Assembly (NCBI GenBank): GCA_964016885.1
Contig: OZ024745.1
Location: 61,752,001-61,816,000 of the forward strand
Reading direction: 5' to 3'
DNA: 64,000 nt
Origin: Eledone cirrhosa
Lineage: Eukaryota
Of the stretch, positions 18,704 through 20,240 are shown piece after piece. The position numbers were made by a program, and so were the translations under genes. Each line of letters opens with the position of its first letter. Positions within the stretch are counted from its first letter, which is position 1. The notes below the pieces were generated by a model. That model saw nothing but the letters and a program-made list of their open reading frames with translations. It was not told the origin of the DNA and did no database searches.

Positions 18704-18932
18704 TATCATGTATATATATATATATAGTATTAAGGGTGCTATTTATGGTTATGTATGCAATAAAACCTTTAATGGTAATATATTATATATACAAGCCCTA
18801 AATAGTGAAAGATAGTCATTAATTACTATCCTATTACCAGTAAGATAAATAGCTCAATGTAATAACATCAGTTGTTTTACAGAGCAGTTATATAGAGATT
18901 ACAATAATCAAAGTTCAGTTTAAGTCATTTAT

Positions 18933-18981
18933 TTGCTTACAATTGTTTTCTCCAAACCGAGGTTTGGATTCTTCGGAGCAA
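18933..18981 (-). ncRNA. Hammerhead-like fold in the left arm of palindrome B (G12A, probably inactive)
   Basis: Mirror of 19959-20007, but GAAA reads AAAA. Confidence 0.6.
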
Positions 18982-19958
18982 CTATTTACTGATCTATAAC
19001 ATACTTGACCTCCTTTTCAACCCAAGAGACACATAAAACATATGCGCGTATTGATCAACAGTGGGGTGACATTCATCAAAAGATATAGCATGGCAATTTA
19101 CATATAAAGGTTGCAGGATAAAAATAAAAACAAGAATGAAAATAAAAATGAAAATAAAGATAAACATGAAGCGTTGGCAGTCTATGAAGATAAAGCAAGA
19201 GGAAAGTTTAGAGTAGTCAGTGCATGAAACAATCTCACGTGTAGCATGCACGCGTGTCTTATTTATACATGATTAGATTGCGTCAGAATGATATTTGCAG
19301 GGTCAGGCAGTTGAAGCAGGCAATCGATCTTATTATGTGGGTTGAATTATCAAGTCATTTATTCTCATACATCTGTATGATATACAGTCTCGGATGCAGG
19401 GGAACACCAAAATATCAAAAACTTTCAACATACTATAAACCTTATTGTATCGTAGGCAAAGCCGTACCACTGTCTTCGCTCACACCACCACTCACATAAT
19501 CCATGAGACGCGATATATATAGAGAACACGTGTCTATCGTATAATTCGCGGTGGTTCAGCATATAATCAACATATTATCAATTGACTTGATAATTCAACC
19601 CACATAATAAGATCGATTGCCTGCTTCAACTGCCTGACCCTGCAAATATCATTCTGACGCACTCTAATCATGTATAAATAAGACACGCGTGCATGCTACA
19701 CGTGAGATTGTTTCATACACTGACTACTCTAAACTTTCCTCTTGCTTTATCTTCATAGACTGCCAACGCTTCATGTTTATCTTTATTTTCATTTTTATTT
19801 TCATTCTTGTTTTTATTTTTATCCTGCAACCTTTATATGTAAATTGCCATGCTATATATTTTGATGAATGTCACCCCACTGTTGATCAATATGCGCATAT
19901 GTTTTATGTGTCTCTTGGGTTGAAAAGGAGGTCAAGTATGTTATAGATCAGTAAATAG

Positions 19959-20007
19959 TTGCTCCGAAGAATCCAAACCTCGGTTTGGAGGAAACAATTG
20001 TAAGCAA
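19959..20007 (+). ncRNA. Type I hammerhead fold, U4C variant, right tip of palindrome B
   Basis: TTGCT CCGAAGA a TCCAAACC-tc-GGTTTGGA g GAAA CAATTG TA AGCAA, then AATAAA at 20007-20012. Confidence 0.8.
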
Positions 20008-20041
20008 ATAAATGACTTAAACTGAACTTTGATTATTGTAA

Positions 20042-20240
20042 TCTCTCTCTCTCTCTCTCTCTCTCTCTCTCTCTCTCTCTCTCTCTCTCTCTCTCTCTCT
20101 CTCTCTCTATATATATATATATATATATATATATATATATATATATATATATATATATATATATATATATATCATGTATATATATATATATATATCATGT
20201 ATATATATATCATATATATATATATATATATATATATATT
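20042..20240. repeat. (CT)n(TA)n microsatellite
   Basis: Direct reading. Confidence 0.95.

Follow-up and report, generated by a model that had tools for sequence, protein, structure and literature searches.

The literature on Penelope-like elements (PLEs) already covers the head-to-head arrangement, tails on one side only, hammerheads on opposite strands and siRNAs derived from such copies. Inverted 5′-truncated copies with a one-sided tail of 30–40 bp are typical (PMC8557442), and head-to-head is the most frequent arrangement, for which self-priming has been proposed (PMC3846280). Pairs of hammerheads lying on opposite strands 100–700 bp apart are known (PMC4209133), and in flies siRNAs match the inverted regions of rearranged Penelope copies (PMC3681739). 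Minimal PLE hammerheads cleave poorly and do so as dimers (PMC4209133). A purified Anolis PLE nicks both strands and extends them, starting at two sites inside its RNA that determine the tail, and its hammerhead is protein-dependent and dispensable for insertion in vitro (PMC11167929). Retrozymes are, by definition, tandem hammerhead units (10.64898/2026.07.22.740005).

Here we dissect a palindromic insertion at positions 18725–20046 of the 64-kb stretch of DNA that was analysed (the window). The insertion almost certainly consists of two 5′-truncated 3′ ends of an abundant Hydra-type PLE, joined head to head. What we add to the published picture is a one-tail rule that holds in 34 of 34 pairs, a duplicated motif with its hairpin, and arms that are not nested in one another. 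In the PLE literature searched, main texts of mostly open-access papers, the one-tail rule was not found stated as twin priming.

Architecture of the palindromic insertion

The features of the insertion and its flanks are the following.

18711–18724, no strand: (TA)n target microsatellite, left flank (sequence)
18725–18893, minus strand: 169-nt PLE tail, present at one outer end only; matches reference 1–169 at 98%
18849–18893, minus strand: first candidate start signal, a AACTGCTC motif with a predicted stem-loop; putative role
18894–19570, minus strand: left copy, a 677-nt 5′-truncated PLE 3′ end (3′ UTR/pLTR) comprising the left arm and most of the 'spacer'
18933–18981, minus strand: minimal type I hammerhead with U4C and a private G12A at 18949 (descriptor scan)
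19571–19582, no strand: 12-nt junction filler, a near-copy of the preceding 11 bases
19583–20046, plus strand: right copy, a 464-nt 5′-truncated 3′ end of the same PLE, tailless
19959–20007, plus strand: minimal type I hammerhead with U4C, intact GAAA, a 2-bp stem III and a palindromic loop
20047–20108, plus strand: 31 extra CT units beyond the terminal TCTCT of the element, a likely result of reiterative copying as reverse transcription began
20109–20170, no strand: (AT)n target microsatellite, right flank (sequence)

The longest inverted repeat of the window (18894–19360/19580–20046) has six mismatches, the innermost at 19358/19582. Its clean arms, 18894–19357 and 19583–20046, are 464 nt each, differ at five sites (98.9% identity) and enclose 225 nt, exactly reproducing the ~99% identical 464-bp arms and 225-bp spacer of an earlier, sequence-only reading of this locus. 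That reading also placed an outward-facing hammerhead at the outer end of each arm, and both motifs are indeed there. It further described AATAAA followed by a tail of ~35 nt: AATAAA lies at 20007–20012 and is followed by 34 nt, and these bases are simply where the repeat ends. The actual PLE tail had been overlooked: it is the 169-nt piece at 18725–18893, which sets the left limit of the insertion at 18725. The left copy thus runs 169 nt past the repeat end and the right copy stops at it; in full-length copies these are the first 169 bases after the repeat end, and the first candidate start signal sits just downstream of the left copy's repeat end. A tail length of 186 nt was rejected, as 17 nt of it are microsatellite. 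No less than 213 of the 225 'spacer' bases are part of the longer left copy.

In good agreement with the earlier claim that the insertion has no credible coding capacity, its longest stop-to-stop frame is 92 aa and tblastn found no match in it to the element's own protein; this copy encodes no protein and is probably dead. It can be called 'young', as it had been, only in a relative sense, with arms that are 1.1% different and 96–98% identical to other copies. No target-site duplication is readable within the microsatellite target.

The parent PLE family

A search of the element's own genome (3.0 Gb) with the 1,153-nt palindrome as query yielded 1,745 candidates, of which 40 were scored. All but two of these (38/40) align with query positions 1–677 only, i.e. 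with the left arm plus 213 nt of the 'spacer', and beyond position 677 one shared family sequence continues in 29 of the 29 other loci examined. On the minus strand this sequence leads into a C-terminal GIY-YIG frame, with an open 830-aa ORF in two loci (L031 and L037) and 832-aa frames in three loci of a second subfamily, B (L100, L104 and L110); ORFs longer than 750 aa are found in five fetched loci. The single 830-aa ORF codes for a reverse transcriptase (RT) and a GIY-YIG endonuclease, whose YRDD and IIY...YIG motifs are conserved in 15 homologues. The full unit measures 4,705 nt including a 2,007-nt 3′ UTR, within which the entire palindrome feature falls. Of 8,000 candidates, 846 are homologues of the protein at E 1e-20, and the closest that carry a name come from molluscs. 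A Pfam search with the 830-aa protein gave no match, and Pfam searches with four homologues gave one GIY-YIG match below E 1e-4.

The protein resembles the Hydra clade of C-terminal EN+ PLEs (Craig et al. 2021, PMC8557442), for which RW[K/R], DKT, a CxCX5C linker and CxxC/CxH near the C-terminus are described: we find RWR (RWK in 13 of 15 homologues), ADKTNN with the clade's DKT replacing DKG, the linker CNCRSSRTC and, by eye, CNLC and CQH near the C-terminus. Again as in that clade, the endonuclease has no CCHH, and the lone Cys inside its GIY-YIG core is, by eye, not conserved in homologues. At the DNA level, the pLTR hammerhead and the (TA)n targets described for the Hydra clade are both present, together with the wider EN+ PLE traits that this paper also describes, namely pLTRs from partial tandems, 5′ truncation and an inverted copy tailed at one end. 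There are differences, too. The unit here is 4.7 kb with a 2.0-kb 3′ UTR, as opposed to the generally <3 kb of that clade (a descriptive trait and not a diagnostic motif); the tail is 169 nt instead of 30–40 nt; and the hammerhead core carries U4C, although the supplements of PMC8557442 may already list this family or variant. An assignment to Neptune was dropped once the protein had been compared with the Hydra-clade motifs. By motifs, and not by a tree, the element would be a Hydra-type EN+ PLE.

Within the family, a sub-lineage (L032, L034–L036, L040–L042, L049 and L050) lacks reference positions 3046–3439, 394 nt of the 3′ UTR that contain a 155-nt tandem duplication. The L031 protein has asparagine-rich inserts between RT and endonuclease (residues ~490–520 and 615–680) that are absent from most homologues and resemble those described for rotifer Penelopes (PMC3846280).

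The central junction

The sequence-only reading had offered two identities for the palindrome: a head-to-head inverted pLTR pair made during PLE reverse transcription, or a self-standing non-autonomous element. The latter, whether MITE-like or retrozyme-like, would move as an arm–spacer–arm unit, and one locus (L002) does align across all 1,153 nt at 91%; its junction, however, differs. We looked genome-wide for recurrence of the unit with the same junctions and did not find it. The 31-nt central junction occurs once in 3.0 Gb with up to one mismatch allowed, and the junctions of the 13 head-to-head loci are all different. Moreover, both arms and the 'spacer' are the 3′ UTR of an autonomous element and continue into it, so the palindrome is not free-standing. 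Its partner encodes an RT rather than a TIR transposase, which together with the unique junction sets it apart from TIR transposons; retrozymes, too, are a poor match, given two opposed copies of an autonomous element's end and no array of tandem head-to-tail, ORF-less hammerhead units. Within this assembly the self-standing foldback element is already refuted, and we leave it next to no probability. The inverted pLTR pair, in contrast, is supported by arms that extend into an RT and GIY-YIG element and by the one-sided tail. For annotation this matters in that such head-to-head PLE palindromes are easily called MITEs.

A false palindrome, assembled from fold-back reads, has in its favour that no contig or read in seven public runs bridges the junction. 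These runs, which do contain the PLE family itself, probably come from other individuals and are partly reduced-representation. The reality of the palindrome therefore rests on internal evidence, and this speaks against an artefact throughout: at the five sites where the arms differ, both sides carry alleles that the family lacks or rarely has, a 12-nt filler is present, the flanks differ, and the one-tail pattern is the same as in 33 other pairs chosen blind to tails. We consider an assembly artefact highly improbable.

A census of head-to-head pairs and the one-tail rule

Genome-wide, the hammerhead pattern has 3,826 exact matches, as compared to none in the control. The first 100 matches listed form 74 clusters, and with neighbours defined as lying within 7 kb they comprise 21 head-to-head, 5 tandem and no tail-to-tail neighbours. 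The locus itself is thus ordinary, being one of hundreds of head-to-head palindromes in this genome (21 of 74 sampled loci). A second count used 36 of 50 loci, 14 having been dropped because larger fetches cover them; among these non-redundant loci, window included, 13 are head-to-head pairs of the same subfamily and their truncation points are all different. The allele comparison used 95 of 110 loci, with 15 dropped as similarly covered.

Every one of the pairs chosen blind to tails has exactly one tailed outer end (13/13 and 21/21, i.e. 34/34), whereas one tail per pair would be expected in at most half of the pairs if tailing were independent. The set of 21 consists of 19 pairs plus L051 and L054, the last two being counted in a tail-selected set as well. 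That set was built from all 44 exact tailed junctions listed for one contig (C1), corresponding to 40 loci (348 matches genome-wide). An inverted partner is present at 31 of the tail-selected loci; 27 could be scored, 26 with one tail and one (L085) with two. The alike flanks of L085 suggest that its two tails reflect a later inverted duplication. Two further members of the set, L071 and L072, seem to be duplicates. The position at which the tail ends is precise: it falls at reference 166–173 in 38 of 40, and (TA)n follows. Tail counts were taken from BLAST tables; a regex end classifier was set aside for this purpose after missing or miscalling some ends (L002, L051, L087 and L106 included).

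Comparing arm lengths in the 34 tail-blind pairs, we find the tailed arm longer in 15, the tailless arm longer in 13, and 6 pairs not resolved. Neither arm contains the other in 13 pairs, and junction overlaps of 1–9 nt are seen in 21. Two loci were noted besides: at L044:2793–2963 the inverted arm comprises nothing but the 169-nt tail, its end coinciding exactly with the first candidate start site, and L100:285–9771 holds two full-length subfamily-B elements head to head over 9.5 kb with a single tail.

The hammerhead motif

Since an Rfam scan of the 64-kb window at the gathering threshold gave no match, the hammerhead call rests on a descriptor scan and on conservation. The sequence-only reading correctly saw an intact GAAA on the right and G12A (AAAA) on the left; the right motif is not fully canonical, however, as both cores read CCGAAGA instead of CUGANGA, a U4C change that had been overlooked. 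U4C is found in 137 of 142 sampled motifs and in 99 of the first 100 genome-wide matches listed, all 100 of which have G12. G12A, in turn, occurs in none of the 76 other aligned copies and in 2 of 142 motifs overall; being near-absent from the family, it represents decay in the window. The motif is conserved among copies: 46 of 48 bases are identical between subfamilies, compared with 177 of 372 upstream, and the two changes are compensatory, converting the loop from AAUU to AGCU with the dimer palindrome retained.

In its helix II of 7–8 bp, helix I of 4–5 bp, extra nucleotide after position 9 and palindromic loop 3 for dimer folding, the motif is like the minimal metazoan PLE hammerheads (Cervera and de la Pena 2014, PMC4209133). 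It is unlike them in its prevalent U4C and in the absence of the G10.1–C11.1 pair, and its near-invariance across subfamilies contrasts with the high variability stressed in that paper. In viroids, U4C occurs naturally and is much less active in vitro (PMC3088659).

Monomer minimum-free-energy folds do not recover the hammerhead structure, which is no surprise given a stem III of 2 bp, and unconstrained cofolding of two copies gave no dimer fold. A transcript reading through the insertion is predicted to form the long hairpin that had been proposed earlier, but not one tipped by a working ribozyme: the hammerhead is predicted to pair with the opposite arm at 42 of 42 (plus) or 41 of 42 (minus) positions and would therefore be unable to fold. 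Cleavage of the right hammerhead, were it to occur, is predicted after 20002. Activity at this locus is unlikely, because each strand of the insertion has one sense copy, predicted to pair with the other arm, and because low activity is reported both for U4C and for minimal PLE hammerheads. The hammerhead, the family's dimer-type motif, is probably inactive here. AATAAA was discarded as a poly(A) signal, since no poly(A) follows any of the ends shown and subfamily B reads AATAAT.

Two candidate start signals and the route of inversion

The 8-nt motif AACTGCTC occurs only twice in the 4,705-nt unit, at positions 5 and 172, each type of 3′ end being directly followed by one copy. Subfamily B retains both sites, and in the two subfamilies both are predicted to form GCUC/GAGC hairpins, albeit weak ones (−4.6 to −9.2 kcal/mol, predicted with no shuffle control). 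At tailless ends the terminal bases are often repeated: 38 of 51 subfamily-A ends have extra CT, with 31 units at this locus, and 3 of 12 subfamily-B ends have extra ATTTC. Such reiteration would fit slippage at the start of reverse transcription.

The arrangement has parallels in the Anolis element Poseidon PAc (Frangieh et al. 2024, PMC11167929), which has two internal reverse-transcription starts whose spacing equals the tail, AT-rich targets, cutting and extension of both strands, and a predicted dimer; strand cutting and a dimer are what we infer for the present family. In PAc the two start sites adjoin each other inside the ORF, in or close to a single AC-rich stem-loop, unlike the candidate sites found here, which are separated by 169 nt, lie upstream of the ORF and each precede a copy of the same motif.

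We propose the following route. The endonuclease would nick the (TA)n target on both strands, and cDNA synthesis would be primed by one DNA end at site 1, where the repeat ends, and by the other at site 2, which lies 169 nt farther down the RNA. A shared short motif with its hairpin putatively marks each of the sites. The two cDNAs would then stop at independent points and their ends be joined via microhomology or a short filler. In L1 twin priming, reportedly described by Ostertag and Kazazian in 2001, two target DNA ends are likewise said to prime on the RNA, giving an inverted product with microhomology joins, and the second primer reportedly anneals at variable internal sites. Unlike in that process, both starts are fixed here and both copies include the element's 3′ end.

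The rival route invokes the same PLE and has the inversion arise by self-priming: a cDNA, or a template of antisense RNA, would fold where it is truncated and then copy back on itself, as was proposed for rotifer Penelopes from palindromes at inverted junctions (PMC3846280). Several features of the present locus agree with this. Its tailless right arm is nested wholly inside the tailed left arm, two family-rare bases (19081 and 19351) are common to both arms, and the filler forms an 8-bp mini-hairpin with the start of the right arm; elsewhere, the junction of L040 is symmetrical. In 13 of the 34 tail-blind pairs, however, it is the short arm that carries the tail and the long arm that has none. 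Neither of these arms can have been copied from the other, and as a general route simple fold-back is thereby disfavoured. Nor does fold-back alone account for both ends preceding the same motif. All in all, we regard self-priming as rather unlikely, while its operation at this locus alone is possible because of the nested arms, the shared rare bases and the mini-hairpin. Twin priming is favoured by the one-tail rule, by both ends lying before the same motif and hairpin and by the non-nested arms in 13 of 34 pairs.

The explanation as a whole, i.e. a single insertion in (TA)n, made of two PLE 3′ ends and likely produced by twin target priming, we consider well supported; that the priming occurred from two RNA start signals is our preferred reading, held with moderate confidence. 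More tentatively still, head-to-head insertions might be the direct product of a dimeric RT that primes both nicked strands from two RNA-encoded signals, with the fixed U4C core marking a hammerhead held at low activity until dimerised or protein-bound. If true, this would account at one stroke for the inverted pLTR, the tail and the rule that exactly one end is tailed, and would yield a defined cis signal open to mutation. More broadly, how PLEs generate their inverted repeats and tails is a question to which this family contributes: its one-tail rule, its duplicated motif and arms that are not nested allow a direct test of twin priming against self-priming as published.

Other features of the window

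A second, older head-to-head insertion of a different repeat family lies at 13026–14880, with arms that are 91% alike. Its left 890 nt recur genome-wide, and at one locus (L114) there is a GIY-YIG frame whose core contains two Cys; the family is probably another PLE clade. Hammerhead-like motifs are seen at 44528–44600 (plus strand; U3-type core TTGACGA, adjoining a (TA)n run) and at ~5900–5980 (minus strand; CTGACGA core), and a small imperfect palindrome (72%) by a (TA)n run at 24155–24337 is possibly another stump insertion. LINE copies with endonuclease and RT frames occupy 35280–42174 and 54744–56322, the former with a 1.26-kb tandem duplication of the LINE 3′ part (39583–42174, 96% alike). 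Two degraded RT-encoding retroelement copies lie in a row at 57765–62313, and a minisatellite of ~3 kb with a 32-bp period spans 30350–33280.
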